Source of the DNA: Stenotrophomonas sp. | GTDB lineage: Bacteria; Pseudomonadota; Gammaproteobacteria; Xanthomonadales; Xanthomonadaceae | Assembly (NCBI RefSeq): GCF_050737575.1 | Contig: NZ_JBOHXW010000007.1 | Location: 20,722 to 84,721 of the forward strand | Length of the DNA stretch: 64,000 nucleotides | Direction of reading: 5' to 3' | Shown: positions 34,641 to 51,947 of the stretch, piece after piece | Layout: each line of letters starts with the position of its first letter | Numbering within the stretch: position 1 is the first letter of the stretch | Position numbers and translations under genes: made by a program | Notes under the pieces: model-generated | Seen by the model: only the letters and a program-made list of their open reading frames with translations | The model's database searches: none | What the model was told of the DNA's origin: nothing

Positions 34641-35135
34641 CTACAGCGCGCGTATCAGCAACCGGTTGAACGTTGCATCGTCAGCTCCATCCACAGGAAT
34701 CTCAAACGTCATTCCCATCTTCGGCAGGTTTCGACGCCAGAAGTCGTGGGCGCGAAGATCGTCGCGGAAGGTAGCCAACAGCCATTGCCCCGTTTCCGGC
34801 GTCACCAACGCGGTGACCACAGCGGCCGCAATTCCCTTCCCTCTGAATTTGGGAAGAACGAAGAGATCCGCCAGTTCCTGGATGCGACGGCCCTGGAAAT
34901 CGACGTCATCCACCAACACGAACCCGCACAGTTTTCCATCAAGCCACAGCAGCCTGGCCCAGTGCGACTGCTCACGCAGCGTGCTCTCCACATCGGCGTA
35001 ATCGCTGTCGTAGAGTCCTTCTGGAAGAATGTCCTCGTCACTCCACGCGGACGCCTCGAAGTAGTACAGCTGCATCAACCGGAACAGCACGGTCGCGTCC
35101 TGCAACGTCGCGGGAATGATCCTCAAGGCTTCCAT
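34641..35135 (-). CDS. GNAT-family N-acetyltransferase
   Basis: ATG 35135; ADLFVLPKFRGKGIA acetyl-CoA binding motif. Confidence 0.82.
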   Translation of the reverse strand: MEALRIIPATLQDATVLFRLMQLYYFEASAWSDEDILPEGLYDSDYADVESTLREQSHWARLLWLDGKLCGFVLVDDVDFQGRRIQELADLFVLPKFRGKGIAAAVVTALVTPETGQWLLATFRDDLRAHDFWRRNLPKMGMTFEIPVDGADDATFNRLLIRAL

Positions 35136-35392
35136 ACAGCGCTCTCCATCGTGCATCCCAGTCTGCCGACCTGCAGTTTGCTGGTCGGCGGTTCCATGTG
35201 AATCCGTGCTGCTGTCACGGTGGATTCTCTCGCCGCACAACGCAGGGACGCGCAGATCATCCGCCATACGGTGCCAATGAGCTATTGAATTCGCTTGCGG
35301 TAGCGAAGATGAAATGCATTCCATGCATTCAGCGGCTTGGCGTATCGACGCGCACATGATCGAGCATCATGAACGCTGTATCGCTTCTACCC

Positions 35393-36754
35393 TCAGCGCT
35401 GAATCACCGGCCCCTCCGGCGAAATGATCAGCTGGTTGATACGGCGCAGTGCGCTTTCCAGTTGTCGGCGGCTGGTTGCCAGGCCCAGCGACAAGCGAAA
35501 GCCACTTTGCTGTGGTGCGTCGTCGGGGCGAAACGCGGACGACGGCGATATCGCCAAGCCCTGCAATTGCGCGGCACGTACGAAGGTGGCGTCGGTCCAC
35601 GGCTCGGGTACGCGGCACCATGCGTGCAGGCCAGTCGCCCTCGCCTTCAATGATGGCGCCAGCAGATGCTCGGCCAGCGCGGTGCGCTCGCTGGCTTCGG
35701 CCAGCACCTGCTTGAGCAATGCGCGGGCCGAGCCGTCCAACAACAACTGGCTGACCAACGCCATCACCAGCGGATGGCCCATCAAGCAGATGGAGCGCAG
35801 CGCGGCCGCGATTGCTTCGGCATGGGACGCAGACGGGCATTGCACGAAGGCCGTGCGCAGGCCGGGGCTGATCGCTTTGGACAGCGTGGAGACGTAGTAG
35901 ACACAGTCCGGCGCGAGTGCGGCGATGGGCGTTGGCTTGCTGGTGTCGTGATGCCAATACGGATCGTCTTCGATGGCGAGCAGTTGGCAGCGTTGCAGCA
36001 CGCGCGCGAGGTCGGCGCGGCGCTGCGGTGGCACGGTCAACGCGGTCGGGTTGTTGCAGGTTGGATTGAAGTACACCACGCGCGCGCCGCTTCCTTTGGC
36101 AGCACGGGCAAGTGCATCCGGGCACATGCCCTGCTTGTCACCGCTCACCGGCACCAAGCGACGGCCAAGTGATCTGGCGACCTGCAACAGACCGGGATAC
36201 ACGAGTTGATCGCACAGAATCGCATCGCCCTCATGCGTCTGGCTGATGAGGATGGAGGTCAGCGCGAACTGTGCGCCTTCGGCCACTACCAAGCGCGTTT
36301 CGTTGACGTTGCCGAGCATCGGCTGCAACCAACTGGTGGCGGCATGGCGATCGGTCGGACTGCCGCCGCTGAGATGGTAGGTCATCAGATTAAGTGCATT
36401 GCTGCGTGCGAGCACCGCCGCCGCGCCACGCCGCAAGACGTCATTCAATGCGGCGGCATCGGGCACGGGCGGCACGTTCATGCTCAAGTCCACCGGCTGG
36501 CCGAACGCGGCTTTTGGCGGCGCGATGAAACTGCCTTGCGGGCCGCGTGCTTCGATCAATCCGCGTCGGCGTGCTTCATCAAACGCGCGCGTCACCGTGG
36601 TCAAGTCGATGCCGAGTTGCTTGGCCAACGCACGCTGCGATGGCAGGCGATGGCCGGGCACCAACTCGCCGGTGTTCATGGTGCGCTCGATGCTGTTGAC
36701 GATGCGCAGGTAGATCGGGCCGTTGCTGGCCAGTGCGTTTTCTATCCAGCTCAC
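35393..36754 (-). CDS. MocR/GntR-family PLP-dependent transcriptional regulator 1
   Basis: wHTH GHRLPSQRALAKQLGIDLTTVTRAF; aminotransferase domain EDDPY and STLSKAISPGLR (PLP Lys retained). Confidence 0.92.
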   Translation of the reverse strand: MSWIENALASNGPIYLRIVNSIERTMNTGELVPGHRLPSQRALAKQLGIDLTTVTRAFDEARRRGLIEARGPQGSFIAPPKAAFGQPVDLSMNVPPVPDAAALNDVLRRGAAAVLARSNALNLMTYHLSGGSPTDRHAATSWLQPMLGNVNETRLVVAEGAQFALTSILISQTHEGDAILCDQLVYPGLLQVARSLGRRLVPVSGDKQGMCPDALARAAKGSGARVVYFNPTCNNPTALTVPPQRRADLARVLQRCQLLAIEDDPYWHHDTSKPTPIAALAPDCVYYVSTLSKAISPGLRTAFVQCPSASHAEAIAAALRSICLMGHPLVMALVSQLLLDGSARALLKQVLAEASERTALAEHLLAPSLKARATGLHAWCRVPEPWTDATFVRAAQLQGLAISPSSAFRPDDAPQQSGFRLSLGLATSRRQLESALRRINQLIISPEGPVIQR

Positions 36755-36803
36755 TGCGCACCTTGGCGTTGACCGTGGAAGGCTGCGACAAACGGTCGCG
36801 CCA

Positions 36804-36812
36804 TGTATGGAT
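36804..36812. promoter_or_regulatory. TGTATGGAT half-site upstream of MocR regulator 1
   Basis: Same core as the inverted repeats at 37831-37869 and 39346-39370. Confidence 0.5.
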
Positions 36813-36950
36813 GATGTCGCGCTTTATTGTTTGCATCAGCGGCGGGTACCTGCTCACAACCATCGGTCGGTTGGAGCGGGTGCCCGCTGTTTTTCATGCG
36901 CGTGCAGAACGCCAAGGCACGACGACGTGCGTGCGGATTCATCGGTGGCG

Positions 36951-37556
36951 TCAGCGATCGCTTTGCCAGGGGCAATAGCAGCCGACCGCGAGCAGGCCGC
37001 GTGGACGCACCGTCTGCCCGGCGACCAGTTTGTCGAGGATGGGTTCGACAAAACTATTGGCCGAGTTGCACACCATGCCGATGCTGTACGGGCCGGCATA
37101 CGCCAGATGCCCTTGTCGGTCCCAGATCGCGACCGCCGGGCTGGCGGGAATGTGCTCGGCACCCTGGATCGTCGGCAATGCTTTCAAGCGGCCTTGCAGA
37201 TAGTCCGGCAACGCGCCGTGCGTGCCGGGTTTCTGCACGGCGTAGAAGTCGATACCCGCGCGGCGATACATCGTGATCAGGTAGCTCAGGTGCGCACCGG
37301 TTTCGCGGTTGCAGACCTTGCACGTCGGGTCCCAGAAATGCACGACGCGGATGCGCCCGGTGGCACCGGCCAGTTCGGGCGGCAACTGGAGCTGGGTGTC
37401 GTCGAAGACGATGGCCTGTTCGGCAAAGCTGGCCTGGTCACTGAAGCCGAAGTACTGCCACAACACGATCGCGATGCCGGCCATCACCACACAACCCGCC
37501 GCAATCCACAGCCGCATGCCGCGACGGCGCGACGCTGCGCCGTTGGCGGGGCTCAC
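36951..37556 (-). CDS. Membrane-anchored thioredoxin-like protein (DUF6436-like)
   Basis: N-terminal TM segment; VVHFWDPTCKVCN (CxxC); SPAVAIWD; C-terminal GCYCPW; GTG start overlaps the upstream stop. Confidence 0.7.
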   Translation of the reverse strand: MSPANGAASRRRGMRLWIAAGCVVMAGIAIVLWQYFGFSDQASFAEQAIVFDDTQLQLPPELAGATGRIRVVHFWDPTCKVCNRETGAHLSYLITMYRRAGIDFYAVQKPGTHGALPDYLQGRLKALPTIQGAEHIPASPAVAIWDRQGHLAYAGPYSIGMVCNSANSFVEPILDKLVAGQTVRPRGLLAVGCYCPWQSDR

Positions 37557-37816
37557 GTGGCCGCGTCCGGGCCGAACTTATAGTCGTATTGCTTGCGCAT
37601 CTCGCGGCACGAATCGGCCTGGGCGCGGCGGTGGATCTCGGTACGCTCCGGCGCGCGACTGCGTTGCAGGCACTGCTCGATGGCCGCTTGCTCACTGGCC
37701 TGCACGCTGGCGGTCTGTGGCCGGGAGCAGACATACACCAGCGAGGCCAGCGCCAGGACGATGAAGCCCCCGCAGCCCAGCATGACCAGATGAAACCTCA
37801 GCTTGTCCCGGCGCAC
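37553..37816 (-). CDS. Small membrane-anchored hypothetical protein
   Basis: TM helix followed by a short domain with two Cys (EQC ... DSC); stop overlaps the next start. Start uncertain (37816 or 37783). Confidence 0.6.
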   Translation of the reverse strand: MRRDKLRFHLVMLGCGGFIVLALASLVYVCSRPQTASVQASEQAAIEQCLQRSRAPERTEIHRRAQADSCREMRKQYDYKFGPDAAT

Positions 37817-37830
37817 ACAACCACCCACAA

Positions 37831-37869
37831 ATCCATACAAGAATCGCAATGTAGCATTTTTGTATGGAT
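37831..37869. promoter_or_regulatory. Inverted-repeat operator ATCCATACAA-N19-TTGTATGGAT
   Basis: Perfect 10-bp inverted repeat upstream of the small-protein/DUF6436 genes. Confidence 0.65.
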
Positions 37870-37897
37870 ATGACCGGGCGCGCCGGCCGGCACTGAG

Positions 37898-39310
37898 CTA
37901 GACGATCGCCCGCGCCCGCGTCTCAGGTGCAGCGGAGATCACCTCGGTGAGCTTGGTCAGCGCGGCCGCCAGACTGTGCTGATCCACCGCTCCGCCCAGC
38001 GACAGGCGGATGGCGTTGCCGGCCTGCTCTTCAATGCTGAAGGCCTCCGAGCTGGCAATGCCCAGGCCCTGCGCCTGTGCCGCCTGGATCAGCCGGTATT
38101 GATCCAGCCGCGCCGGCAGCGGCAGCCACACATGCAGACCGGTCGGGTGCGCCTGATACGGCGCCGGCAGGATGCGGGCGGCGATCTGCTGCCGCTGGCG
38201 CAGCTCCTGCTGGAAGCGGCGGACCATGTCGTCGGCCTGGCCACTGCGGATCCAGTGCGAGGCCACCGCCACCATCGACTGGGTCGGCATCAGCGCGATG
38301 GAGCGCAGGGCGTCGAGCAGCGGCTCCATCGGCTCACCCGGCGGCACCACCAGATAGGCCGTGCGCAGGCCCGGGGCCAGGCACTTGGACAGGGTGGAAA
38401 CGTAGTACACCGGCGCTTCCGGGCTGCTCTCCACGGCCAGCGGCGCGGCGGCATCGGCGGCCAGCAGCCAGTACGGGTCGTCCTCGACCACCGCCACGCC
38501 GTAACGCCGCGCGATGGCCAGAATCGCCGTACGCCGGGCCTGCGACATGGTCGCCGTGGTCGGGTTCTGGATGGTTGGAATGAGGTAGATCAGGCTCGGC
38601 TTGCGCAGCTGGCAGGCTTCTTCCAGCGCCTCCGGCAGCATGCCTTCGTGGTCCATGGCGATGGGCGCAATGCCCCGCTGCAGCACGCGCGCGGCCGCCA
38701 GCAGGCCAGGATAGGTGAGCTGTTCGGCGGCGATCACGTCGCCCGGCTGGGTCTTTGCCAGCAGCAGGGCGCACAGCGCGGCCTGCGCGCCGGGGCAGAT
38801 CACAACCCGCTCCGGCAGCACGTTGCCCAGGATCGGCGCCAGCCACTGCACGGCGGCAGCGCGGTCGTCGCGGGAGCCGGCGCCGACGTGGTAACTCATC
38901 AATTCGCCCTGCCCCAGCTGCTGGCTGAGCTGCTGGAAACCCCGCTCCATGCTCTGCGCGAACGGGCTGCTGCCCAGCAGCGGCGGGATGTTCATGCTCA
39001 GGTCCACCGAGGTGGCGCTGTTGCCGGCCGACATGGCGATGAAGGTGCCGCCCGCGCCCTGCGCGTCCAACAGATCGGACTGGCGCAGCTCGGCATAGGC
39101 GCGGGTGACGGTGGTCAGGTCCACGCCCATCAACTGGGCCAGATCGCGCTGCGGCGGCAAGCGGTCGCCAGGCTGCAGCACGCCGTCGTCGACGGCCTCG
39201 CGCACCTGCTGGGCAATCTGCAGATACAGCGGGCCAGTGCCTTCGGTGAAGGGACGGACCCAGGTCCGGTTGGGTTTTTTCAGGCGTCGACCAGTGGCTT
39301 GCGACTGCAT
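37898..39310 (-). CDS. MocR/GntR-family PLP-dependent transcriptional regulator 2
   Basis: GDRLPPQRDLAQLMGVDLTTVTRAY; EDDPY; STLSKCLAPGLRTA; evident paralog of 35393-36754; divergent from cyoA. Confidence 0.92.
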   Translation of the reverse strand: MQSQATGRRLKKPNRTWVRPFTEGTGPLYLQIAQQVREAVDDGVLQPGDRLPPQRDLAQLMGVDLTTVTRAYAELRQSDLLDAQGAGGTFIAMSAGNSATSVDLSMNIPPLLGSSPFAQSMERGFQQLSQQLGQGELMSYHVGAGSRDDRAAAVQWLAPILGNVLPERVVICPGAQAALCALLLAKTQPGDVIAAEQLTYPGLLAAARVLQRGIAPIAMDHEGMLPEALEEACQLRKPSLIYLIPTIQNPTTATMSQARRTAILAIARRYGVAVVEDDPYWLLAADAAAPLAVESSPEAPVYYVSTLSKCLAPGLRTAYLVVPPGEPMEPLLDALRSIALMPTQSMVAVASHWIRSGQADDMVRRFQQELRQRQQIAARILPAPYQAHPTGLHVWLPLPARLDQYRLIQAAQAQGLGIASSEAFSIEEQAGNAIRLSLGGAVDQHSLAAALTKLTEVISAAPETRARAIV

Positions 39311-39345
39311 CAGAGGGGACCTTCCATGCTTGTGCGTGCGTCAAC

Positions 39346-39370
39346 CCATACAATCATGTATCTTGTATGG
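39346..39370. promoter_or_regulatory. Inverted-repeat operator CCATACAA-N9-TTGTATGG in the MocR2/cyoA divergent promoter
   Basis: Read directly; an extra TGTAT lies in the spacer. Confidence 0.65.
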
Positions 39371-39492
39371 ACTTGAATGGACAGGCAATCCTCTTGTAGG
39401 CGCCGCCGTACGGACAGTGTAGCCGCTCCCCGCGTATGTGCCGGGCGCCGGCAGTCCCCGCTCAAGAGCTCCTTCATCAGGGTCGACTTTCA

Positions 39493-40392
39493 ATGAATAT
39501 CTGCTGGAAACGCATCCGCCCAGCGCTGGCCGCTTTGGCATGCGTGGGTTTGGCTGGCTGCAACTGGGTACTGCTGGATTCCAAGGGCGACGTGGGCATT
39601 GCCCAGCGCGACCTGATCATCATCTGCGTGGCATTGATGATGATCGTGGTGATCCCGGCCATCGTGCTGACCTTCGTCTTTGCCTGGAAGTACCGCGCCG
39701 GCAACACCAAGGCCAGGTACATGCCGGATTGGGCGCACTCCACCAAGGTGGAAATCGTGGTGTGGGGCGTGCCGTTGATCATCGTCGCGGTGCTGGCGGT
39801 GATTGTGTGGAAATCCACGCACGAACTTGACCCTTACAAGCCGCTGGATATCCCCGGCGAGCCGCTGCATGTGGAAGTGATCGCCACTGATTGGAAGTGG
39901 GTATTCGTTTACCCGGACCTGGGCATTGCCACGGTCAACCAGCTCAACTTCCCGGCCGGCCAACAGCTGGCGTTCGACATCACCTCCAACTCGACGATGA
40001 ATACCTTCTTCATCCCGCAGCTGGGTGGGCAGATCTACGCGATGGCCGGCATGCGCACGCAGCTGCATCTGGTGGCCAACGAACCGGGCGCGTTCGACGG
40101 CATGTCGGGCAATTACAGCGGCCACGGCTTCTCCAACATGAAGTTCGTCGCCACCGCGATGAGCAAGCAGCAGTTCGATGACTGGGTTGCGCAGGTGCGC
40201 CAGTCGCCGGACCAGCTCAGCTTCGACGAATTCAAACGTTTGGCCGCGCCCACCCGCAAGGAACCGGTGCGCCACTTCGCCAGCGTCGAACCACTGCTGT
40301 TCAAGAAGGTCATCGACCAGTTCATCGGCGTGGGTGAGAACACCCGGGCCACGTCGGGCGATCACGCAGAAACCAAGGCCTCCCAGGAGTAA
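39493..40392 (+). CDS. cyoA: Cytochrome bo3 ubiquinol oxidase subunit II
   Basis: Lipobox [13 protein letters not shown]; DWKWVFVYP; [16 protein letters not shown]; [12 protein letters not shown] (no CuA cysteines). Confidence 0.95.
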
Positions 40393-42380
40393 TGAGCATG
40401 TTCGGTAAGTTGACGTGGGACGCCGTGCCGTTGCACGACCCAATCGTCGTGGTGACATTGTTGGGCATGGTGTTGGGTGGCGTTGCGCTGCTGGGCGCCG
40501 TTACCTATTTCAAACTGTGGGGCATGCTGTGGCGCGACTGGTTCACCACCGTGGACCACAAGAAGATCGGCATCATGTACATCGTGGTGGCGCTGGTGAT
40601 GTTGGTGCGCGGCTTTGCCGATGCGCTGATGATGCGCGCGCAGTTGGCCGCCGCCGGCCCGGGTAGCGATGGCTTCCTGCCGCCCGAGCACTACGACCAG
40701 ATCTTCACCGCGCACGGCGTGATCATGATCTTCTTCGTCGCCACACCGTTCGTGGTGGGCCTGATGAACATCGTGGTGCCGCTGCAGATCGGCGCGCGCG
40801 ATATGGCGTTCCCGTTCCTCAATGCCTTCAGCTTCTGGATCTTCGTGGTCGGCGCTGCGCTGATGATGATCTCGCTGGGCCTTGGCGAATTCGCGATGAC
40901 CGGCTGGGTGGCGTATCCGCCGTTGTCAGGCATCGAGTTCAGTCCGGGCGTGGGTGTTGATTACTACATCTGGGCGTTGCAGGCCTCCGGTGTCGGCACC
41001 TTGCTGACTGGCGTCAACCTGTTCATCACCATCCTGCGCATGCGTGCGCCAGGCATGACGCTGATGAAGATGCCGGTGTTCACCTGGACCGTGCTGGTCA
41101 CCAGCGTGATCATCATCGCCGCGTTCCCGATCCTGACCGTCGCCCTCGGCGCGCTCACCCTGGACCGCTACCTGGACTTCAACTTCTACACCAATGACCT
41201 GGGTGGCAACCCGATGATGTACGTCAACCTGGTGTGGGCCTGGGGCCACCCGGAGGTGTACATCCTGGTGTTGCCGGCGTTCGGCATTTTCTCCGAGATC
41301 ACCGCCACGTTCTCGCGCAAGAAGTTGTTCGGCTACAAGTCGATGGTGGGTGCAACGCTGGCAATCGGCATCCTGTCGTTCGTGGTGTGGCTGCACCACT
41401 TCTTCACCATGGGCTCCGGTGCCAGCGTCAATGCCTTCTTCGGCATCATGACGATGATCATCGCCATCCCCACCGGCGTGAAGATCTTCACCTGGTTGTT
41501 CACCATGTACGGCGGCCGCGTGGAGTTCAGCGTGCCGATGTTGTGGACCATCGCCTTCCTGGTGACCTTCACCATCGGCGGCATGACCGGTGTGCTGCTG
41601 GCCATTCCGGGTGCGGATTTCCTGCTGCACAACAGCCTGTTCCTGGTCGCCCATTTCCACAACACCATCATCGGTGGCGCGTTGTTTGGCTACCTGGCCG
41701 GCTTCGTTTACTGGTTCCCGAAAGTGTTCGGCTTCACCCTCAACGAGCGCTTGGGCAAGTGGTCGTTCGCCTGCTGGATCATCGGCTTCTACCTGGCCTT
41801 CATGCCGCTGTACATGCTCGGCTTCATGGGCATGACCCGTCGCATGAACCAGTACGACAACCCGGCGTGGACGCCGTACCTGATTGCCGCCTTCATCGGA
41901 GCACTGTTCGTGTTCGCAGGCATCGTGCTGATGCTGGTGCAGATTTACGTCAGCGTGCGTGACCGCAAGAAGAACCTGGACATCACCGGCGACCCGTGGA
42001 ATGCACGCACGCTGGAATGGCAGACGCCCTCGCCGCCGCCGTTCTACAACTTTGCCGTGGTGCCCAAGGCCGACCAGCTGGATGCCTTCCACGAAGCCAA
42101 GAAGCAAGGCCTGCCACCGCCGCCGAAGACGTACGCGCCCATCCACATGCCGCGCAACACCGGCGTGCCGTTGATCCTCAACATCTGGATCCTGGCGCTG
42201 TGCTTTGCCTTGATCTGGCACATCTGGTGGCTGGCCGGTGCGAGCTTCGTGGCGATGATCGTCACCTTGATCGTGCGCTCCTACGACGAGGACGTGGACT
42301 ACTACGTCAGCGCCGAAGAAGTGGCCGCCATCGAGAACCAACACCAGAACAAGCTCAAGCAGCACAGGGTGATTGCATGA
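40392..42380 (+). CDS. cyoB: Cytochrome bo3 ubiquinol oxidase subunit I
   Basis: [33 protein letters not shown] heme-copper motifs. Confidence 0.97.
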
Positions 42381-43006
42381 ACATCATGTCCAACGTCGCC
42401 GTAGAAAACGCAACAGCGGCCGACCACAGCCATGACGATCATGGCCACGAACAAGGCGGCATGAAGGTCTTTGGCATGTGGGTTTACCTCATGTCCGACC
42501 TGGTGCTGTTCGGCTCGCTGTTCGCCTCCTACGCGGTGCTCAGCACCGCGTATGCCGGCGGCCCGACCGGCGCGGAGTTGTTCTCGCTGCCGTTCGTGAT
42601 GGTGGAAACCTTCCTGCTGTTGTTCTCCAGCATCACCTACGGCCAGGCCGTGTTGGCGATGCACCGGCAGAACAAGCAGGCGGTGCTGGCCTGGCTGGGC
42701 GTCACCTTCGCGCTCGGCGCCGGCTTCATCGGCATGGAAGTGTATGAGTTCAACCACCTCATCCACATTGGCGCCGGCCCCACCACCAGCGCCTACCTGT
42801 CCGCGTTCTTCGCGCTGGTTGGCACGCACGGCCTGCACGTGGCCAGCGGCCTGATCTGGATGGCGGTGGTGATGCACCAGGTGAAGCGTCGCGGGCTCAC
42901 CCCGACCAACGTCACCCGCATCTCCTGCCTGAGCCTGTTCTGGCACTTCCTGGACCTGGTCTGGATCTGCGTCTTCACCTTTGTCTATCTGATTGGAGTG
43001 TTCTGA
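42377..43006 (+). CDS. cyoC: Cytochrome bo3 ubiquinol oxidase subunit III
   Basis: ATG 42377 overlaps the cyoB stop; [28 protein letters not shown] motifs. Confidence 0.95.
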
Positions 43007-43008
43007 AC

Positions 43009-43341
43009 ATGTCCGACAACGACACCTCCCGCGCCGGCAGCGGACATGGTTCCACCAAGTCCTACCTGATCGGCTTCGTGATCTGCGCCGTGCTCACCGT
43101 CATCCCCTTCATGCTGGTGATGAACCCGACGCTGTCGCGGCCACTGACGATGGCCCTGCTGGTCGGCTTTGCCGTCGTGCAGATCATCGTGCAGCTGGTG
43201 TACTTCCTGCACATGAACCGCTCTTCGGAGGGCGGCTGGAACCTGGCCAGTTTTGTTTTCACCCTGGTCATTCTTTTCATCGTGGTCGCGCTCTCCATCT
43301 GGATCATCTGGAGCATGCACTTCCACATGATGGTCAACTGA
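43009..43341 (+). CDS. cyoD: Cytochrome bo3 ubiquinol oxidase subunit IV
   Basis: SYLIGF, QLVYFLHMN, SIWIIWSM motifs. Confidence 0.94.
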   Translation: MSDNDTSRAGSGHGSTKSYLIGFVICAVLTVIPFMLVMNPTLSRPLTMALLVGFAVVQIIVQLVYFLHMNRSSEGGWNLASFVFTLVILFIVVALSIWIIWSMHFHMMVN

Positions 43342-43420
43342 CGCACACACGCACGGGCTGGCAAGCAATTGCCGGCCCGTGTCGTGCAGCGCGGCGGGCC
43401 GTCCTTCATCGACTGTAGCC

Positions 43421-44113
43421 ATGTCCCGTTATTCCTCCCCCGCCAGCGGCCTTGCCGCACTGGCCCGCAAGCTCCGTCTTTCCACTGTGTTGCTCACCGC
43501 CGCCAGCCTGTTGCTGGTGGCCTGCGCGGCCAAACCCAAAGTGGATTACTACGGCAAGGACATCGCCTGCGAAGCGCTCGGCCAACACTGGTCGATGCCC
43601 GACAGCAGCGGCGTCACCCGCACGCCCGCCGACTTCAACGGCAAAGTGACCTACCTGTTCTTCGGCTTCACCAGCTGCCCCGACGTCTGCCCCACCACGA
43701 TGGTGGAGTTGAACCGTGTGAAGCACCTGATGGGCTCGGACGCCGACAACCTGCAGGTGGTATTCGTCACCGTCGACCCGGCCCGCGACACCCCGGCCGT
43801 CGCCGAGACGTATGTAAAAGCTTTCGACCCCACTGCCACCGCACTGGTCGGCAACGATCAGCAGCTGGCTGCCATGGCGTCGTCATTCAAGGCCTTCTAC
43901 GACCGCGAAGACGGCACCCTACCCGGCACCTACACCATGAGCCACACCTCCGGCGGCTACGTCTTCGACCGCCAGGGCCGGCTGCGCCTGTTCGCCCCGT
44001 TCGGCATGCCGGTGGAACAACTGTTCTCCGACATCCAACGCCTGACCCTGGAACCGACATTGCCGGTAGGCCAGCGAAACCCACCGGGCTGCAGCGTGGA
44101 AGCTTCAAGCTGA
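43421..44113 (+). CDS. SCO (Sco1/SenC) family copper chaperone / thiol reductase, lipoprotein
   Basis: LLVAC lipobox; FFGFTSCPDVCPTT (CxxxC); VTVDPARDT; YTMSHTS (conserved His). Confidence 0.9.
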   Translation: MSRYSSPASGLAALARKLRLSTVLLTAASLLLVACAAKPKVDYYGKDIACEALGQHWSMPDSSGVTRTPADFNGKVTYLFFGFTSCPDVCPTTMVELNRVKHLMGSDADNLQVVFVTVDPARDTPAVAETYVKAFDPTATALVGNDQQLAAMASSFKAFYDREDGTLPGTYTMSHTSGGYVFDRQGRLRLFAPFGMPVEQLFSDIQRLTLEPTLPVGQRNPPGCSVEASS

Positions 44114-44150: not shown

Positions 44151-44191
44151 AGCCCCTCTCCCGTATACGGGAGAGGGGTTGGGGTGAGGGG
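44151..44191. repeat. REP-like type B element
   Basis: AGCCCCTCTCCCGTATACGGGAGAGGGGTTGGGGTGAGGGG. Confidence 0.8.
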
Positions 44192-44306
44192 AAGCTCCGA
44201 GCAAGCAGACCATCAGCTCCCAGCAAGCCCCCCAACACCACCCCAAAACCCATCAAAACCCCACCCCCACCTTGACACTCGCCCCCTCGGAACTGAGGCT
44301 AATGCC

Positions 44307-44726
44307 ATGAGCATTGACCTTACTCCTCTGAATCTCCGAGAGCTCAACACTCTCATCCGCACCGCCCAGGCAACGCACAAAGCACTCGTCAGCCGCCCAC
44401 CGGCCGAGAAAGTCCGGCGCCAGTTGATCGCCGCCGCCAAGCGCGCTGGCTACACGATTGACGAAGTCTTCGGCCTGGACGCAGACCAGGCGCAACCCAA
44501 GACCAAGGCCACCCGCCGCCGCAAAGGCCCCAAGGTCAAGCCGAAATACCGCGACCCGGAAAACCGCTGGAACACCTGGACCGGCCGCGGAAAGATGCCC
44601 CTCTGGCTCGCCTCAAAAGTCCGCTTCGGCCACAACCCGACCGACTTCCTGATACCCGGCGTCGCCAAGCTCACCCCGAAAGAGAAAGTCCTGACGGGAA
44701 AGCGGAAGTTGTTCAAGCAGGGTTGA
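44307..44726 (+). CDS. H-NS-family nucleoid-associated protein (XrvA-like)
   Basis: ATG 44307; KYRDPENRWNTWTGRGKMPLWL is the H-NS DNA-binding signature; N-terminal IDLTPLNLREL coiled coil. Confidence 0.9.
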   Translation: MSIDLTPLNLRELNTLIRTAQATHKALVSRPPAEKVRRQLIAAAKRAGYTIDEVFGLDADQAQPKTKATRRRKGPKVKPKYRDPENRWNTWTGRGKMPLWLASKVRFGHNPTDFLIPGVAKLTPKEKVLTGKRKLFKQG

Positions 44727-44739
44727 TCGGGAAACAAAA

Positions 44740-44768
44740 AAGCAACCAGACGGGGAGTCTGGTTGCTT
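44740..44768. terminator. Bidirectional rho-independent terminator
   Basis: AAGCAACCAGAC-GGGGA-GTCTGGTTGCTT with A/T tails, between convergent genes. Confidence 0.8.
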
Positions 44769-44908
44769 CCTTAATTTTTCGCGCGGAAAAGTTAGCCGCT
44801 ATCAAACTCGTCGCAAAAAAAACTCAACCCTGATCTGCACACCAGCATCCTTGCGCGGCTCACAAATAGATTCGAGAGCTTCTCTAGAGCGTGCATGGAA
44901 AATTTAAT

Positions 44909-47900
44909 CTAGACGCCTTTCCAGAATCGCTCAACCTCCACTCTCCCTGAATCTCTATCCACCATTTCCTCGACAGGAATATTGAATGTAAGCCTTACCT
45001 TTGCTTTTCCCGAGGTAGCGAGAGGCTCCAAACGTGCTGCGCCACTATCGACAAGGGCGCTCACAAATCGCGTCCACATGTCCCCGTCATAATGATTTAT
45101 CCAAGATAACCGATGATCGTCGGCGACTTTAGTTTCCCTATCGATAATCACCGGGACGTCAGGGCGCCTTATCAAACGAGTCAAATAGTGAAGCGAAGCT
45201 ACAATAATCTCGCCATCGGACGAATCAATACTCCCACTCAAAATACCAGCATCGTGAAGTATCCTCGCCACCTGCGCTGGTGTATCAGCAAAGGAGGAGC
45301 CAATCTTCAGAGATGATATTGATGCACAATCCCCCCCTTTCAACACTCTCTTTGCTACGACTGAAGAAGGCACTTCCAAGTATTCGATAGTAGCTCCCGA
45401 CACTATCACCTCGCCTTCAGAATTATCAGAAATACCGAGATGCGATATAACACTTCTGGAGAGGTCAATAGATGTCCAGCCACCGTCAGCTAAAACAACG
45501 CTGTTCATAGCCAAACCGCGCGCTGATGGAGTCGGCGGAATTCCGTTACCGAAGTTCAAAAGCGACTCCCAAAGTGCACCAAGATTTGAGGACGCCGCCT
45601 GATTTCCAGCCTCCCCCTTCAGTTCAAATGACATTTTACTTGAGAGGATCTTCGCAGATTCAGGGTATCTTTTTATTAGCCATTCAAATACTGCGGAATT
45701 TATATTGCTGGCTGCCAAAAGGCTAAATAAAGACTTCTCATTGAAAACCCCGGAAACTCGACGCTGAATTGCCAGCAGCAAAAAACAATCAAACAAAACT
45801 TCATGAGAAAAACCGAATTGATTCTGTCCATTTTTATCAGGCCTCACCCCAAGACCGCCTAGTGATGAAAGTCGCCTTGAGAGCCCAGGCCTCACTTCGT
45901 CAAGCGGCTCACCAACCACCATCTTCGCACAAGCCACAAGCTCTGATAGTTCGAGCTCCCTACTCTTTGAACTCTGCATCAAATCAGCCACATCCGAGAA
46001 TAGCTCTCTTAACTCCCCAGTACTTAGTAGCTCCTCAGAGGTCTGGGTTCGAAGCTTGTGCGATTCTCGATCTAAAAATTGCTCGACGACAATCTCATAC
46101 ATTGAGGGAGCGTGCCGCGGAGTGTCAGCATTCCGTTCGATCCAAGCAGCAAAAGCTTTCGCGAAGAATGGCACGCCAAGTACGCCCCAATCATTCGCAG
46201 TAAGCATCTTGATTCGATCAACCCCGACCCCCATTTGCTTTAGATATTTTTCCGACTCATTTCTTTTCCATGGCTGCAATTCGACAAGCGTATGATCCAC
46301 ATTAAGATCAACTGCAGACGCAAGTGATCTTCTGTACTGGGTTAAGTAGTATGAAGACCTCGCTGATGCGACTAATACTCCTCGCCCACCAAGCTCTCTA
46401 AACCAGGGTTCGAGGGAGCCCAGCGCGTTTTCGTATCCACTGCTTCCCAAAAGCTCATCGAATCCGTCCACCATCAGCACCAGAAGTCCATTTCGACACA
46501 AAGCCTTTGCGCTGTGACTTGAGAGGACTTTAGTGATATTCAACGCGCTATCAACTGCATCCTCCAAGCTGGAAAGCGTCCTACCTGTCGATGAGACAAA
46601 AAGATAAAGCGGACATTGGCGCGTCGGATCTTCAGCGATGAGCCTTGAGCGCTCTTTCGCCAACCCCAGCATTAATTCCGTTTTTCCTAGCCCGGCTTGC
46701 CCAACCAAGAAGAAAACCGACGTTGACGGTTTCATGGTCTGACAAGCATCGTCGATTCGCACTCCTAGTTCAAAAAATTTGGAACCGTCAATCAACTCAG
46801 GACCAAGTGTGGACTCTTGCATTTCTCTGAGTATCGAAGGACCCCGCACCGGGGAGGTACCTTGAATCCCTAGACGTGACGACTCTTCCGCCTCTCGCCG
46901 CTGATCTAGCGCAGATAGACCCATGCCTATACGGCGGGCAAGCAGCTCCCACTTTGAAACGCTCTTAAGAAATTCAGAATACGATCGCCACTCGCCCTGA
47001 CTCGCCTCCCATTCCCTACGATGATCAAGCCCAATACGGAAGGCATCGATTCTCGGTTCGTTACCTTCGCTTGTTGATCTTGTCCAAGGAATGTGAAGAT
47101 AGCCCGTCCGCTCATCATCACCGAAAAAGAAACTAGGCCTCGAATAATCTTCCGTATATGCGGCAACGTCAGCCAGAGTATCTGTTACAAGCTTCGCCAA
47201 ATCCTGATTTGGATTGCCTTTTTCGGAAAGAAACAGCCTTCTGAAGCGAGCAACGAGCTCGGAATTTCGCTCAAGCCAAAGCTCTCCATCAGATCCGAAA
47301 TAATGTATGGTATCGTCGGCAAAGTGAGAGAAGACACCTAAATTTATTCTGGAAGAATGTGCGACCCACAGAGGCGAGACCTCGAAGGTGGCCGCCCCTT
47401 CATCTCCAACCAGCCAAAGCCGACCATCTTGCTCGCTAACGCCAACGATCGAAAGTTGCGTTGAGAGCGATCTTTCAAGACAAGATATGAGTGCCGAGAC
47501 CGCTAGCGATATTTTCTGACGCATTCCGTCATCTGACGGCAGCGTCCCGCCATGTGAAAGCCGGTCCCGCAAAGATTTAAAGTTACTGTATTTATTAGCC
47601 ACCCTGAAGGCATCTACCCCCTTGATGGCATCCACAGATAGCGCGCGCAACATTGAACTAACCCAAGCTGTTGCAGGCTCATCAACTAGTTTTGATCCTT
47701 GACGAAGCACCGCTAACATTGACCCAAATCCGGGCACCGGAAGCAACTTAACCGATGCACCTTGCTGCCTTCTATTAAATGAAATAAGAAGCGTGTAAAT
47801 AACTCTAACGTGGAAGTCGATCAGCGCGATTGCCTCCCGCACGTCTACTTCATCGTTTGAGCGTTTCACTCTGAAATTTGAAAGGACGGGAGCTAACAAC

Positions 47901-47923
47901 TCAAAAGCATTTATTGATTTCAT
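44909..47923 (-). CDS. NACHT/STAND NTPase with an N-terminal HEPN-like domain; candidate anti-phage NLR-like protein
   Basis: 1004 aa, AT-rich relative to flanks; R119-DRLS-H124; Walker A GQAGLGKT (408-415); Walker B LMVDGFDE (483-490); sensor ASARSSY; GVPF; FSHEVLFD. Confidence 0.8.
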   Translation of the reverse strand: MKSINAFELLAPVLSNFRVKRSNDEVDVREAIALIDFHVRVIYTLLISFNRRQQGASVKLLPVPGFGSMLAVLRQGSKLVDEPATAWVSSMLRALSVDAIKGVDAFRVANKYSNFKSLRDRLSHGGTLPSDDGMRQKISLAVSALISCLERSLSTQLSIVGVSEQDGRLWLVGDEGAATFEVSPLWVAHSSRINLGVFSHFADDTIHYFGSDGELWLERNSELVARFRRLFLSEKGNPNQDLAKLVTDTLADVAAYTEDYSRPSFFFGDDERTGYLHIPWTRSTSEGNEPRIDAFRIGLDHRREWEASQGEWRSYSEFLKSVSKWELLARRIGMGLSALDQRREAEESSRLGIQGTSPVRGPSILREMQESTLGPELIDGSKFFELGVRIDDACQTMKPSTSVFFLVGQAGLGKTELMLGLAKERSRLIAEDPTRQCPLYLFVSSTGRTLSSLEDAVDSALNITKVLSSHSAKALCRNGLLVLMVDGFDELLGSSGYENALGSLEPWFRELGGRGVLVASARSSYYLTQYRRSLASAVDLNVDHTLVELQPWKRNESEKYLKQMGVGVDRIKMLTANDWGVLGVPFFAKAFAAWIERNADTPRHAPSMYEIVVEQFLDRESHKLRTQTSEELLSTGELRELFSDVADLMQSSKSRELELSELVACAKMVVGEPLDEVRPGLSRRLSSLGGLGVRPDKNGQNQFGFSHEVLFDCFLLLAIQRRVSGVFNEKSLFSLLAASNINSAVFEWLIKRYPESAKILSSKMSFELKGEAGNQAASSNLGALWESLLNFGNGIPPTPSARGLAMNSVVLADGGWTSIDLSRSVISHLGISDNSEGEVIVSGATIEYLEVPSSVVAKRVLKGGDCASISSLKIGSSFADTPAQVARILHDAGILSGSIDSSDGEIIVASLHYLTRLIRRPDVPVIIDRETKVADDHRLSWINHYDGDMWTRFVSALVDSGAARLEPLATSGKAKVRLTFNIPVEEMVDRDSGRVEVERFWKGV

Positions 47924-48401
47924 TTTTTAATAGTCCTTTACTAGCTCGCAGCCAGCGGGCCTGCTCACGCATTGACTGTAGCGACATAAGCAGCTCGTTT
48001 CACACGGCATGCCCCGCCCAATTTCCCAGAATGATAGGTGAATCGATCAGCAACTTGTAGACAATCGTCATCCATAGACACTGCAGGCCTGATTTGCTCT
48101 CGTCGCAACTTGATAGAAACGCGCTTTCCCTCCCCTAAGCTCCCACCGTCGCTTCTTTGCTGATTCAGCTTGACATCGCCGCCACATAAGCGGCGGCGGC
48201 AGAAGCAACATAGCGGACAAAGCGCAATTGCCAGACGTCTGACCACAAACAAACCATCTTGAAACAGCGTATAGAGTCGGCATTTCTGCCGACCCTTTCG
48301 CTTGAACATCCGCCCACAAGCCATAGCCAGAATCGAGCTTGTCAAACAGCCCACATGATCTATCAATCTTTGCGGCTATCGAATGTGCCCGCAGACGCCA
48401 C

Positions 48402-49403
48402 CTACCCCGCCGTAAAAAACACATCCGCATGCAGATCCTGCGCCTGCAATCCACGCGCACTTGTAACCTCCATCGCCGCTTCAACCATCAACGGCGGGCC
48501 GGCGACGTAGGCTTTCCAGCCATCAAGATTCTGCAGGTCTTCGGCGACGGCGTCGGTGACCATGCCTGTCCGCCAAGCTGCGTCTGCGGGGGCATCGGAA
48601 AGAACGGCCGTGAACGTCAGGTTTGAGTGCTGCTGCGCCAGCTGCTGAAAGTGATCCACGAGATAAATATCCCGCGTGCTCCGCGCACCGAAGTAGATAT
48701 GGATCGGCTGCTTCATGCCTGCGGCAATCGCGGCGTCCACGATGCATTTGATCGGTGCCAGTCCTGAGCCACCCGCGATGCATAGCAGCGGCCCCGTGTG
48801 GTGCTCGCGCAGAAACGAGGAGCCGAACGGGCCTTCGACCAGCACCGGCTCACCGAGCTGCAGCTGCGTGTGGATGCATTCGCTCGCGGCGCCACCGGGC
48901 ACACGACGGATGTGGAACTCAAGCAGGTCATCGCCGGAACGGCTCGCCATGGAGTAATCGCGGGCGGGAGCGCCAAGGAATTTCAGCCGCGCATATTGGC
49001 CGGCACTGAAGGCAAGCGCTTCGCCGTGATCGTTGACCAGCTGGATGCGCTTGATGTCATGCGTGACGTCTTCCATCGCAGCCACGCGGCAGGTGAGACG
49101 GCGCTGCGGATGCGATGCGGCCTCCGCTTCTTCAAGCCAGGTAACGACGCCGTCCGTTATCGGAATGGCGCAGCAAGCGAGGATCAGCCCTTGCGCCTTG
49201 TCCACGCCGGTGAGCGCAAAGCGGTTGTGATCGAGCAGCTCGACCTCGCCGCTGACCAGGCGCGACCTGCACGATCCACAGCGGCCCGAACGGCAGGCGT
49301 GCGGATAGGCGATGCCTTCGGCGAGCGCCGCGTCGAGAATGGTCATGCCCGCCGGCACCGCAATGCGGCGCCCGGTGCCGCGCAGTTCGATGTTCTTGCT
49401 CAT
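48402..49403 (-). CDS. 2Fe-2S ferredoxin:NAD(P)H reductase (oxygenase-reductase type)
   Basis: CRSGRCGSC...C plant-type ferredoxin; RDYSMAS (FAD); GPFG; IAGGSGLAP; YVAGPP; DVFF. Confidence 0.9.
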   Translation of the reverse strand: MSKNIELRGTGRRIAVPAGMTILDAALAEGIAYPHACRSGRCGSCRSRLVSGEVELLDHNRFALTGVDKAQGLILACCAIPITDGVVTWLEEAEAASHPQRRLTCRVAAMEDVTHDIKRIQLVNDHGEALAFSAGQYARLKFLGAPARDYSMASRSGDDLLEFHIRRVPGGAASECIHTQLQLGEPVLVEGPFGSSFLREHHTGPLLCIAGGSGLAPIKCIVDAAIAAGMKQPIHIYFGARSTRDIYLVDHFQQLAQQHSNLTFTAVLSDAPADAAWRTGMVTDAVAEDLQNLDGWKAYVAGPPLMVEAAMEVTSARGLQAQDLHADVFFTAG

Positions 49404-49412
49404 GGCGCGCAC

Positions 49413-49679
49413 TCAGATCGCATTGGATAAACCCAACGCCACCATCAGGCCAGGTTTCTGCGATGCAAACGTTCCGTAGAACACCTGATCACCGACCAAG
49501 GTAATCGGCGCGACACGCACACCGGTGCGGCGCTTGGCTTCGTCCCTGACCACAGCATCGGTGAGGTCGCGTTCCTCGAACGTGATGCCTTCCCTGGCAA
49601 ACCACTCCTTCAACATCTTGCAATCCGGGCAGGTCGGCGGCGTGTAAACAGTGACGTGGGGATGAGATGCGCGGGTCAT
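49413..49679 (-). CDS. Glutaredoxin-family protein (NrdH-like)
   Basis: VYTPPTCPDCKMLKEW and VAPITLVG motifs; ends 10 nt before the reductase start. Confidence 0.85.
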   Translation of the reverse strand: MTRASHPHVTVYTPPTCPDCKMLKEWFAREGITFEERDLTDAVVRDEAKRRTGVRVAPITLVGDQVFYGTFASQKPGLMVALGLSNAI

Positions 49680-50011
49680 GCAGGCTTCCTCAAGCGGGCG
49701 ATGGGTGTATGCAGATGGCGAAGAACGCAGCGGGCGTTCTGCACGAATTCAAAGCTTAAGGATTGCCGCCGTGGGAAGGTCAAGCGGATTTGTTGCGCCA
49801 CTTTGAGAAGCGTTGACTGGCACTGACCTGCGAAGCAGGTGTTCGCTACAAAACAGAAGGCCGACATTTCTGCCGGCCTTCTGCGTGAACAGCTATCAAC
49901 GTTGTTGGTCTGGTGCATTCAACTCAAGGGCAGCTGGCATCAGCGTAGCGTTTGGTGAGTTCTCAACACGGCTCTGATGCCGGCTTCTCATTTTCTTCCC
50001 ATATCCGTTAG

Positions 50012-50761
50012 CTATTTCCATATCTCAGTCGTGATGAAGCCGTAGTCTCTGCTGTTGCAAGCCTCAATGCTTGCAATGCCTTCATGCATACCAAGCGACA
50101 GCAATCCCGTTCCACAGACAACGGCACGAGATGCCCAGAGCCACCTCTGACGGTGAGAGGATTCGCCCACTGTACAGCCGGGAAGAAAGTTAGCTCTCCA
50201 GCTGACAATTGCCCCGCCCTCCTCCCACTCTGCGTCCGCATGTACGGCAAACCCGCCAGGATCGCCGCGATAAACCGAGCCTGGGCCATCCATCACGATA
50301 CTCATCGTCGCACCACAGAAAGCACGTGCGGCACTAGCGGCAGGGCTTACGGCCTCATTCCTCCTTGACTTCGCACCTTCCGATAGGGAGCTTCCTCCGC
50401 AGGCAAGCAATGCCTGTGCGTCTTTCGTAAGCGTAGCGATGCCGGTACGGACAACCTCGCCGCCGAACTTGGAACAATACTTATCGAGTTTTGTCAGCGT
50501 ACTCTCAGGCTGGCGCGATGCGTCCAGCTCCAGCATTCCATCAGGTCGTACCGCGTGTATCAGCTCAACGTAGTCACCATTTTCAAGCTGATACGTGCGC
50601 AGCAGCGTTGCTGACGTCCTAGCCAGCGAGACATCGCTGGATGTCGTCTCTGACACCAGCTTGAACGAACCCCACATAGGCGTCTTCCCGTTCTGTGCAG
50701 CAGAAGCCATCGCGATGGAGAGAAGAAAAATTGCTGCAGAACTGTTCTTGAGATTCAACAT
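50012..50761 (-). CDS. Hypothetical exported protein
   Basis: ATG 50761 with AGGA RBS; signal-peptide-like AAIFLLSIAMASA; several Cys; no recognised family. Confidence 0.5.
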   Translation of the reverse strand: MLNLKNSSAAIFLLSIAMASAAQNGKTPMWGSFKLVSETTSSDVSLARTSATLLRTYQLENGDYVELIHAVRPDGMLELDASRQPESTLTKLDKYCSKFGGEVVRTGIATLTKDAQALLACGGSSLSEGAKSRRNEAVSPAASAARAFCGATMSIVMDGPGSVYRGDPGGFAVHADAEWEEGGAIVSWRANFLPGCTVGESSHRQRWLWASRAVVCGTGLLSLGMHEGIASIEACNSRDYGFITTEIWK

Positions 50762-51119
50762 GTCTTGTCCTTGAATTGCTGAACTTTCTTGTATGAAGCG
50801 CGCGCGAATGCGTCCTTGCAAGTACAGTCGGACTGCCAAACAAAGGCTTGATTGACCGTAAATGCATCCTCACCCTAGCGATATAGTTCACTGAAGAACG
50901 GTGAGCGATGTCTCACTAGCTGCCCGCCGGGGAAAACTCTGAATAGCTCCACGCTGATGCCGAATCACCGCGCCTAACGGGAGCACCCTAGTCGCGGCAC
51001 AACGGACGTTTCTTCGCACCGAACAACAAGGCCGACGCGGGCAAGAACGGGCGTCGGCATGGAGTTCGCCGAGTGCTCAACATGACTCTGATCGGGGTTT
51101 CTAGCGGACCTTCCCGACA

Positions 51120-51647: not shown

Positions 51648-51947
51648 TCAACACCCGGAGTTTTGACTGTCGTGAAGCACTCGATGGTAGTCATGCGAAC
51701 GCGCCGATCGTTGCGCACCTGCCATGGGAGTTGTCGTCATCAATCAACCCGAGCGACCAATAGGAATTTTCTTAGTCGGCTTCGGTGCTGCACTTGCTTG
51801 ATCTGGATCGGAAGCGATGGGTGCGTGAATCCGACCGGCCGGCTTTTTTTCAGAAAGCAAAACGCCGGCATCTCTGCCGGCGCTTGCTTGAACACCTATC
51901 AATGTTTTTGGTGTGAAGCATTCACCTCAACATCACCGCATCAGAAC

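Follow-up and report, generated by a model that had tools for sequence, protein, structure and literature searches.

What connects two pyridoxal phosphate (PLP)-dependent regulators of the MocR type to a terminal-oxidase operon in Stenotrophomonas, and what signal might these regulators perceive? We analysed a stretch of 64,000 nucleotides from Stenotrophomonas sp. (NCBI RefSeq assembly GCF_050737575.1, contig NZ_JBOHXW010000007.1, positions 20,722 to 84,721 of the forward strand; the window), in which the genes concerned occupy positions 35393–44113. On the minus strand the genes follow in the order MocR2, a small open reading frame (ORF), a DUF6436 gene and MocR1, and cyoABCD-sco lies opposite on the plus strand. 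Our analysis supports a single conserved unit, tied together by DNA boxes, that comprises both MocR genes, the small-protein/DUF6436 operon and cyoABCD-sco. We consider it probable that this unit is a small regulon with local action, governed by two PLP-binding MocRs of the 'YrdX3' group.

MocR1 (35393–36754, minus strand, 453 amino acids (aa)) and MocR2 (37898–39310, minus strand, 470 aa, divergent from cyoA) each join a GntR winged helix–turn–helix domain (Pfam PF00392, E = 2e-12 and 8.5e-16, respectively) to a fold-type I aminotransferase-like domain (Aminotran_1_2, PF00155). They share 39% identity across 446 aa, the PLP-pocket residues Lys, Asp, Asn and Arg are intact in the alignment of both, and the motifs STLSK, NPT, EDDPYW, PGLR and RLSLG are aligned and invariant among the MocR homologues compared. 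By domain content and PLP residues, both are MocR/GabR-type proteins; binding of PLP and of repeated DNA boxes is predicted from the conserved boxes that adjoin their genes. Between them lie the small ORF (37553–37816, minus strand), which encodes an 87-aa protein with a single transmembrane segment, and the DUF6436 gene (36951–37556, minus strand, 201 aa; PF20029, E = 2.9e-37), whose start it overlaps. The small protein begins at a GTG at 37816 and shares with its relatives the N-terminus (V/M)R(R/A)(D/E)KL(R/K)FHLV; profile searches found no family match for it. The DUF6436 protein has an N-terminal transmembrane anchor, a thioredoxin-like domain with a CKVC motif and a C-terminal GCYCPW, and is weakly similar to ResA and MPT53. 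A sequence-only reading of this locus had described two similar STLSK-bearing regulators bracketing a small membrane protein and a CxxC thioredoxin-like protein, with MocR2 divergent from cyoABCD-sco, and gene calls and Pfam domains bear out each of these points.

The oxidase genes all lie on the plus strand. The longest cyoA ORF begins at 39436, distant relatives align with its product only from residues 10–20 on, and a lipoprotein-type signal (…LAGC) follows M20, so that the real start is probably 39493; cyoB (40392–42380), cyoC (42377/42386–43006), cyoD (43009–43341) and sco (43379–44113), which encodes a SCO1/SenC copper chaperone with a CPDVC motif, follow. CyoA, subunit II, scores 346 against TIGR01433 (cut-off 266) and CyoB 1115 against TIGR02843 (cut-off 1020), the operon proteins match Pfam COX1, COX3, COX4_pro and SCO1-SenC, and no Cys/His CuA motif was found in the CyoA sequence. 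With both equivalog cut-offs passed and a subunit II lacking CuA ligands, CyoABCD is a cytochrome bo3-type ubiquinol oxidase. No cyoE gene lies within the cyoABCD-sco operon.

Two inverted repeats tie the regulators to these genes. Operator B (37831–37869), upstream of the small-protein/DUF6436 operon, reads ATCCATACAA-N19-TTGTATGGAT. Operator A (39346–39400), between mocR2 and cyoA, consists of the inverted pair CCATACAA-N9-TTGTATGG at 39346–39370 and direct-repeat boxes at 39373–39380 (TTGAATGG) and 39394–39400 (TTGTAGG), spaced in 10- and 21-bp steps; this layout of one inverted pair plus direct repeats is the commonest MocR motif type of Suvorova and Rodionov. Both inverted repeats sit exactly where the sequence-only reading had placed them, with N19 and N9 spacers. 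The window contains 4 copies of the exact 8-mer TTGTATGG/CCATACAA, where 0.59 would be expected, and the entire 3.89-Mb genome contains 22; a genome-wide scan of 26 contigs finds two exact boxes no more than 45 bp apart at this locus only. Paired boxes with up to one mismatch at the same maximal distance gave nothing convincing beyond this locus on any of the 26 contigs. One candidate for a wider regulon, the perfect palindrome CCATTCAA-TA-TTGAATGG at position 206709 of contig C3, resembles the third box of operator A; it lies inside a 1282-aa ORF and is probably a chance occurrence.

Conservation gives the same picture among 34 copies of the locus from 30 genomes, and the genome-wide and orthologous-locus scan that had been proposed as a check came out in favour of the motif. 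Operator A reads CCATACAAGATACA-NN-ATTGTATGG in 34/34 copies, where the two central bases alone vary and the flanks diverge. The boxes of operator B are likewise kept in all 34, in an architecture that differs between clades: the spacer is N19 in the humi/terrae clade, and the S. maltophilia group has CCATACAAGAT-N6-TTGTATG(C/T)-AATGTATGGAT, that is, N9 plus a tandem box. As the box sequences are kept while the spacers are free and show no compensatory change, operators A and B behave as protein-binding sites and not as RNA structures. Operator B comes just after the stop codon of MocR2, a place where one might look for a terminator, and the repeats might in principle be RNA hairpins or terminators, chance matches or sites of an unrelated factor. 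The excess of boxes in the window and the sole exact pairs in the genome speak against chance, the absence of conserved pairing, the clade-dependent spacing and the lack of a downstream U tract speak against hairpins or terminators, and the same box accompanies MocR homologues across orders; we regard this whole class of explanation as highly improbable.

The unit is a recurrent feature of the genus. The order sco-cyoDCBA, divergent from MocR2, small ORF, DUF6436 and MocR1, is kept in 13 named Stenotrophomonas loci, and among 121 Stenotrophomonas species genomes 47 carry the MocR pair, with a MocR2 79–96% identical, 19 a single MocR and 55 none. Across 201 sampled genomes, drawn from 64 genera of the family, only Stenotrophomonas has the pair. 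The locus studied here, in a genome of 3.89 Mb and 63.5% G+C, belongs to the humi/terrae clade: its MocR2 shares 96% identity with the proteins of S. humi DSM 18929, Stenotrophomonas sp. Iso1 and sp. SY1 and 93–94% with those of S. terrae strains. The DUF6436 family scores above its cut-off in 10 of 300 Gammaproteobacteria, and within about 1.5 kb on each side of the matches elsewhere no adjoining MocR or cyo gene was found, which makes the linkage of DUF6436 to MocR and cyo genes specific to Stenotrophomonas over that distance.

The boxes reach further than the pair. In Paraburkholderia, Massilia, Duganella, Undibacterium and Pseudoduganella, MocR genes of 44–48% identity have CCATACA boxes immediately ahead of their start codons or spanning them, for example CCATACATGATCATATGTATGG at a Paraburkholderia locus (L024) and TCCATACAT-N25-ACCATACAAGATG at a Duganella locus (L014), and the recognition helix DLTTxTR is invariant in all MocR homologues compared. 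Boxes that precede approximately 45%-identical MocR genes across orders argue that CCATACA is the operator of this MocR subfamily. They are present whether the divergent neighbour is cyoABCD, as in Paraburkholderia, or an 80-aa protein with two transmembrane segments, as in Massilia, and a box that accompanies the regulator gene whatever its neighbour is as expected of an autoregulated transcription factor. The arrangement of a MocR gene divergent from cyoABCD itself recurs in Paraburkholderia and in single-MocR Stenotrophomonas. In Oxalobacteraceae loci (L014, L015, L019, L021 and L023) the MocR homologue is divergent from the 80-aa two-transmembrane protein and not from an oxidase, and at the Massilia locus L015 (5640–6000) the start codon of MocR falls between two CCATACA boxes in direct orientation, 33 bp apart.

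The region upstream of MocR1 (region C, 36755–36950) is built differently. It holds site C, a single box of the MocR1-lineage type at 36801–36810 that reads CCATGTATGG (CCATACATGG on the minus strand). Its minus-strand reading CCATACAT is one mismatch from the 8-mer motif; one-mismatch matches number 23 against 24 expected, so that site C alone does not rise above chance. Close relatives have CCCTACAT or CCGTACAT at this position, and every pair-type locus keeps the TACATG core, as do single-type Stenotrophomonas and Paraburkholderia (CCATACATGCGCGAC). It is this conservation, not the motif statistics, that argues for site C. The sequence-only reading had seen one motif in all three promoter regions and hence a shared operator. 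The two exact inverted repeats stand; the third site departs by a mismatch and is conserved though at chance level on its own; and a single operator for all three sites gives way to CCATACAAGAT inverted pairs at A and B and a lone CCATACATG box, beside a RegA-type palindrome, at C. The MocR1 lineage, including Paraburkholderia, uses CCATACATG, and operators A and B use CCATACAAG; from this division we infer that MocR2 serves operators A and B and MocR1 serves site C, with cross-talk through the shared core possible.

The palindrome next to site C (36785–36799, GCGACAAACGGTCGC) has the form GCGAC-N5-GTCGC, lies 31–45 bp upstream of the MocR1 start codon and is kept in pair-type and single-type Stenotrophomonas. 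Its reverse complement is one base off GCGACCGTTCGTCGC, the site identified by chromatin immunoprecipitation for R. capsulatus RegA at ccoNOQP (PMC5359404). Among the proteins encoded in the genome is a RegA-like response regulator that carries the hallmark helix GMHRRSLQRKL, and GCGACAAACGGTCGC is on these grounds a putative RegA/PrrA/RoxR-type redox site. Palindromes of this form number 19 genome-wide, one of which (position 131289 of contig C4) lies approximately 230 bp upstream of a second cyoABCD operon (C4, 131521–135564). The gene for the RegA-like regulator is on the minus strand of C4, near position 169572 as counted on the reverse-complemented contig. Other TGCGAC...GTCGCA sites adjoin genes that resemble ccm, gltA and hemL, as judged from N-termini only.

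Region C also contains a hairpin (36838–36895, plus strand) with a 23-bp stem, an invariant AUCGGUC loop and a U tract that reads in the cyo sense. Its stem (36838–36890, followed by UUUUU) has a predicted folding energy of −53.5 kcal/mol (z = −6.6), and 7 of the 23 pairs show compensatory double changes. Across the alignment it yields 37 G-U cells against 3 A-C cells, which points to a functional hairpin RNA on the plus, cyo-sense strand. A terminator scan flags it, in keeping with its G+C-rich stem and direct U tract, the mark of an intrinsic terminator; in the S. maltophilia group and in single-MocR species this tract is less pronounced. An Rfam search of 35000–40000 returned one sub-threshold chance match only and nothing for the hairpin, and its covariance model found no second copy in the genome and none in the Paraburkholderia or Oxalobacteraceae loci. 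A leader hairpin of this kind, covarying in its stem and invariant in its loop, seems not to have been described before. The homologous hairpin of single-MocR species is part of the leader of cyoA. At the locus studied here, it would terminate a plus-strand transcript of very small length or shield the DUF6436 gene that converges on it; candidate identities are an orphaned leader, a terminator and a small RNA.

These elements carry the history of the pair. In single-MocR Stenotrophomonas, one MocR, 54% identical to MocR1 and 45% to MocR2, is divergent from a different cluster, cyoABCD-PCuAC-Sco-MFS (19/121 species genomes; examples are loci L044–L047), and the RegA box, the CCATACATG box and the hairpin recur in its control region. 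Phylogenetic analysis places MocR1 as sister to the single-type MocRs (support 100/99) and MocR2 in a separate long-branch clade. MocR1 is the orthologue of the single cyo-linked MocR of other Stenotrophomonas species, and a recent tandem duplication giving rise to MocR1 and MocR2 is ruled out by the tree. Region C can be aligned, with no gap, to the spacer between cyoA and MocR in single-MocR species, sharing with it GCGAC-N5-GTCGC, CCATGTATGG, a −10-like TAWYGT and the AUCGGUC-loop hairpin with its U tract, and this homology marks MocR1 and its control region as a relic of an older MocR-cyo module. In the pair-type lineage region C faces the 3′ end of the DUF6436 gene, not cyoA.

A relic might have lost its function, leaving MocR2 alone to regulate the cluster and MocR1 with its upstream region stranded and without a role in cyo control. 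The changed setting of region C fits such a history, as do the faster divergence of MocR1 (66–91% identity, against 80–96% for MocR2) and the lack of listed targets for Smlt4405, the S. maltophilia counterpart of MocR1, in the 2016 regulon study discussed below. Yet all 47 pair-type genomes encode an intact MocR1 that retains every PLP and DNA-contact residue. The box, RegA palindrome and hairpin ahead of it stay conserved, the last with compensatory changes, site C has the CCATACA core in common with operators A and B, and the MocR1 orthologue is induced together with the cluster. Control by MocR2 alone is therefore, in our judgement, unlikely.

Published expression data for the orthologous locus of S. 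maltophilia K279a, whose locus tags we matched by synteny and annotation order (SMLT_RS20925–20950), show when the unit is used. RNA sequencing of K279a biofilms grown with P. aeruginosa PAO1 (PMC10714729) gives log2 fold changes of +4.08 for SMLT_RS20940, the hypothetical gene at the position of the small ORF and among the most induced genes in the co-culture, +2.37 for SMLT_RS20945 (DUF6436), +2.12 for SMLT_RS20930 (cyoA), +1.74 for SMLT_RS20925 (cyoB) and +1.68 and +1.40 for the two MocRs; the cluster does not respond to S. aureus in the same study. Co-induction of every box-bearing transcription unit is as expected of a shared operator. A P(smlt4401) reporter is likewise induced in co-biofilms of K279a and P. 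aeruginosa by a mechanism that its authors write 'still needs to be elucidated', and the switch of S. maltophilia to this cyo oxidase alongside P. aeruginosa is stated to be unexplained (PMC10714729, PMC13311295). Neither paper mentions the flanking PLP regulators or their operators.

How, then, might the MocRs act on these promoters? An extended −10 element, TGcTACATT (37856–37848, minus strand), lies in the spacer of operator B and points toward the small-protein/DUF6436 operon. TGnTAnnnT is present there at a fixed offset in 34/34 copies while its hexamer varies (TACATT, TAGAGT, TAAAGT, TAATCT, TATCTT, TATTTT or TACTTT), the behaviour of a real extended −10. Relative to the predicted start, the distal box covers −26 to −19 and the proximal box lies over the start itself, and the ribosome-binding site and GTG of the small ORF follow within 25 nucleotides. 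Operator A contains a plus-strand −10-like TATCTT (39359–39364), which is invariant and lies downstream of an equally invariant minus-strand TACACT (39416–39421). TACACT is part of the block CGGCTACACTGT (39411–39422, minus-strand reading), identical in 34/34 copies with diverging flanks, and could be the −10 of the mocR2 promoter.

As the boxes straddle or overlap −10 elements, repression by occlusion, relieved by ligand, seems to us somewhat the better account. MocR2 would recognise CCATACAAGAT boxes, as an inverted pair and in-phase direct repeats, at operators A and B, and MocR1 the related CCATACATG box ahead of its own gene, in a control region presumably inherited with its RegA/RoxR-type redox box and leader hairpin from the older MocR-cyo module. 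Unliganded MocR dimers would repress by promoter occlusion and would leave the DNA once a small molecule had reacted with their bound PLP or settled on it. This release would switch on the bo3-type quinol oxidase and its copper chaperone together with the periplasmic thioredoxin-like module, which may help to assemble or protect the oxidase. The assignment of paralogues to sites, the direction of regulation and the nature of the ligand are all predictions.

The same regulon could instead run on activation, with the MocRs as ligand-dependent activators of the MpaR or GabR kind that recruit RNA polymerase to weak promoters upon formation of the ligand-PLP adduct and regulate themselves positively. 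None of the three regions has a good −35 element, the box of site C overlaps the −35 position of the cyo-sense −10-like TAWYGT, both mocR genes rise along with their targets, and MpaR activates ccoN4 and its own operon. The boxes of operator B, by flanking the extended −10 and covering the predicted start, have a geometry typical of repression; the cio-linked MocR of P. pseudoalcaligenes acts as a repressor; and co-induction of the regulators is explained equally well by release from autorepression. We give activation a distinctly smaller chance than repression.

The natural signal may be a respiratory poison or a cue from a competitor. By analogy with MpaR, cyanide is the leading candidate for that signal, a tentative one; 2-heptyl-4-hydroxyquinoline N-oxide (HQNO), iron competition acting through RegA and an amino compound remain as alternatives. 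At its most specific, the proposal is that the MocR pair detects a competitor's respiratory poison, most plausibly hydrogen cyanide through a PLP-cyanohydrin adduct, and that MocR2 thereby derepresses the bo3 oxidase and a dedicated periplasmic thiol module, made up of the small transmembrane protein and DUF6436, while MocR1, under RegA/RoxR redox control and with an orphaned leader RNA, sets the threshold. We offer this only as speculation. If true, it would give a reason for the change of oxidase that S. maltophilia undergoes when grown with P. aeruginosa, so far unexplained, and PLP-based poison sensing would be a convergent theme of at least three MocR lineages, attached to cbb3, bd and bo3 oxidases.

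Several observations pull against derepression by such a poison. A scan found no consensus sigma-70 promoter, so that the geometry of operators and promoters rests on weak hexamers, repression stays inferential and the label 'promoter regions' in the sequence-only reading was itself conjecture. MpaR, the best-studied analogue, is an activator of a different MocR group with a different motif. Cyanide goes unmentioned in both K279a biofilm studies (PMC10714729, PMC13311295), and the nearest curated hidden Markov model is EhuR, a sensor of an ectoine-derived amino compound. Cell-free supernatant induced only weakly in one K279a study, and in another, three genes of the orthologous operon, SMLT_RS20915, SMLT_RS20920 and cyoA (SMLT_RS20930), are among the genes that rise after 30 min with supernatant. 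As supernatant raises cyo-operon genes, a soluble factor such as HQNO or siderophores is equally possible and a volatile signal is not required.

The effector might instead resemble those of GabR, PdxR, EhuR and TauR and be a common amino compound or a B6 vitamer, with the link to the oxidase metabolic and the induction by P. aeruginosa indirect, for instance through iron or redox stress acting on RegA. Among curated models EhuR comes closest, at 329 and 383 bits, short of its cut-off of 480; the Arg with which aminotransferases bind carboxylates is retained (RLSLG); a RegA-type box is present in the MocR1 promoter region; and P. aeruginosa supernatant, which contains siderophores and HQNO, also raises cyo genes. 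The gene content points elsewhere: neither the cluster nor its surroundings hold an amino-compound catabolic gene or a B6 gene, the box is paired nowhere else in the genome, and related regulogs hold cyo, cyd, cysI and COG3749, the last two common to the cyanide-responsive MpaR regulon. An amino-compound or B6 effector is a real contender, though less likely than not.

Taken together, these results add several elements to the locus. The small-ORF/DUF6436 operon emerges as the putative target most tightly linked to an operator and the most strongly induced, with an extended −10 inside the operator itself; its two products, the 87-aa membrane protein and the DUF6436 protein, seem to be undescribed and have no known function. 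Further additions are a defined layout of operators and promoters, the distinction between MocR2-type and MocR1-type sites, an origin of the pair other than recent duplication, and the RegA-type box and covarying terminator hairpin upstream of MocR1. With exact candidate operators, a likely promoter and candidate signals in hand, a published and unexplained interspecies oxidase response becomes testable. On its far side the oxidase operon abuts an accessory island (44184–52000): immediately 3′ of sco lies an H-NS-like gene (PF00816), G+C content falls to 49–55%, and a 1004-aa NACHT protein is encoded at 44909–47923 within this low-G+C stretch.

The core link between MocR and oxidase is not new, having been predicted in silico for a sister species and studied experimentally in analogous systems. 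MocR regulators often control cytochrome oxidases (Suvorova & Rodionov 2016, PMC5320631), and the 'YrdX3 - Xanthomonadales' regulog of that work (Table S1b) assigns CyoA, CyoB, CyoC, CyoD and COG1999 to Smlt4402 and names Smlt4405 as a second regulator without listed targets. As Smlt4402 and Smlt4405 stand three genes apart, like MocR2 and MocR1, the connection of regulator and oxidase had already been predicted for this very locus. In K279a, too, a MocR is divergent from cyoABCD and COG1999 (SCO) with a second MocR three genes away, in the same order; against S. maltophilia-group copies MocR2 is 80% and MocR1 73% identical, and gene order is identical. By their orthology to Smlt4402 and Smlt4405, with locus tags matched by synteny, and by the cyoABCD-COG1999 target, MocR1 and MocR2 are assigned to YrdX3. 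The published entry differs in being an in-silico prediction in a supplementary table, without targets for Smlt4405 and without the small-ORF/DUF6436 operon. Other YrdX3 regulogs, in Ralstonia and Cupriavidus, contain cyoABCD with cysI and COG3749, or cydAB (PMC5320631). The regulon of a terminal oxidase and periplasmic thiol/copper proteins put forward by the sequence-only reading thus holds up as a conserved, box-linked unit with co-induced orthologues, and its claim to be undescribed does not, given this regulog and the experimental work on MpaR with ccoN4 (PMC10790758) and on a cio-linked MocR (PMC8567248).

MpaR of P. aeruginosa (PA4132) offers the closest functional parallel. It is a MocR-type PLP regulator whose gene adjoins the terminal-oxidase gene ccoN4; it regulates itself, acts at several neighbouring promoters through short palindromes and turns on ccoN4 when cyanide is present, probably by way of modified PLP (PMC10790758). 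It differs as an activator, by its motif ATCTGAT and in targeting a cbb3 subunit instead of a bo3 oxidase, and in the 2016 classification it falls into the 'YdcR' group, its regulon comprising ccoN, cysI and COG3749 (PMC5320631). E. coli YdcR is merely 27–30% identical to MocR1 and MocR2 and has a long linker at which the alignment is gapped, so the resemblance to MpaR is functional and not orthologous; compared in this way, through YdcR, membership in the MpaR/YdcR group is rejected on identity, linker gaps, the different 2016 group and the CCATACA boxes. GabR of B. subtilis shares the two-domain architecture (its structure, PDB 4N0B, is matched at E = 1.3e-14), the PLP lysine, repeated boxes and the combination of autoregulation with control of a divergent operon, but senses γ-aminobutyric acid, binds direct repeats 34 bp apart, has a long linker and serves catabolic targets. 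EhuR/EnuR (NCBIfam NF052286) is the top-scoring curated model for both paralogues, and membership is rejected at 329.5 and 383.3 bits against a cut-off of 480 and with no ectoine genes nearby. In P. pseudoalcaligenes CECT5344, MocR (BN5_1899) is divergent from an alternative oxidase cluster containing cioAB and other genes, and its mutant expresses this cyanide-inducible cluster constitutively, identifying a repressor (PMC8567248); that system has a single regulator and a bd-type cyanide-insensitive oxidase accompanied by nitrilase and amino-acid genes. MocR regulators of different lineages have thus been paired repeatedly with alternative terminal oxidases, of the cbb3 type, the bd type and now the bo3 type.

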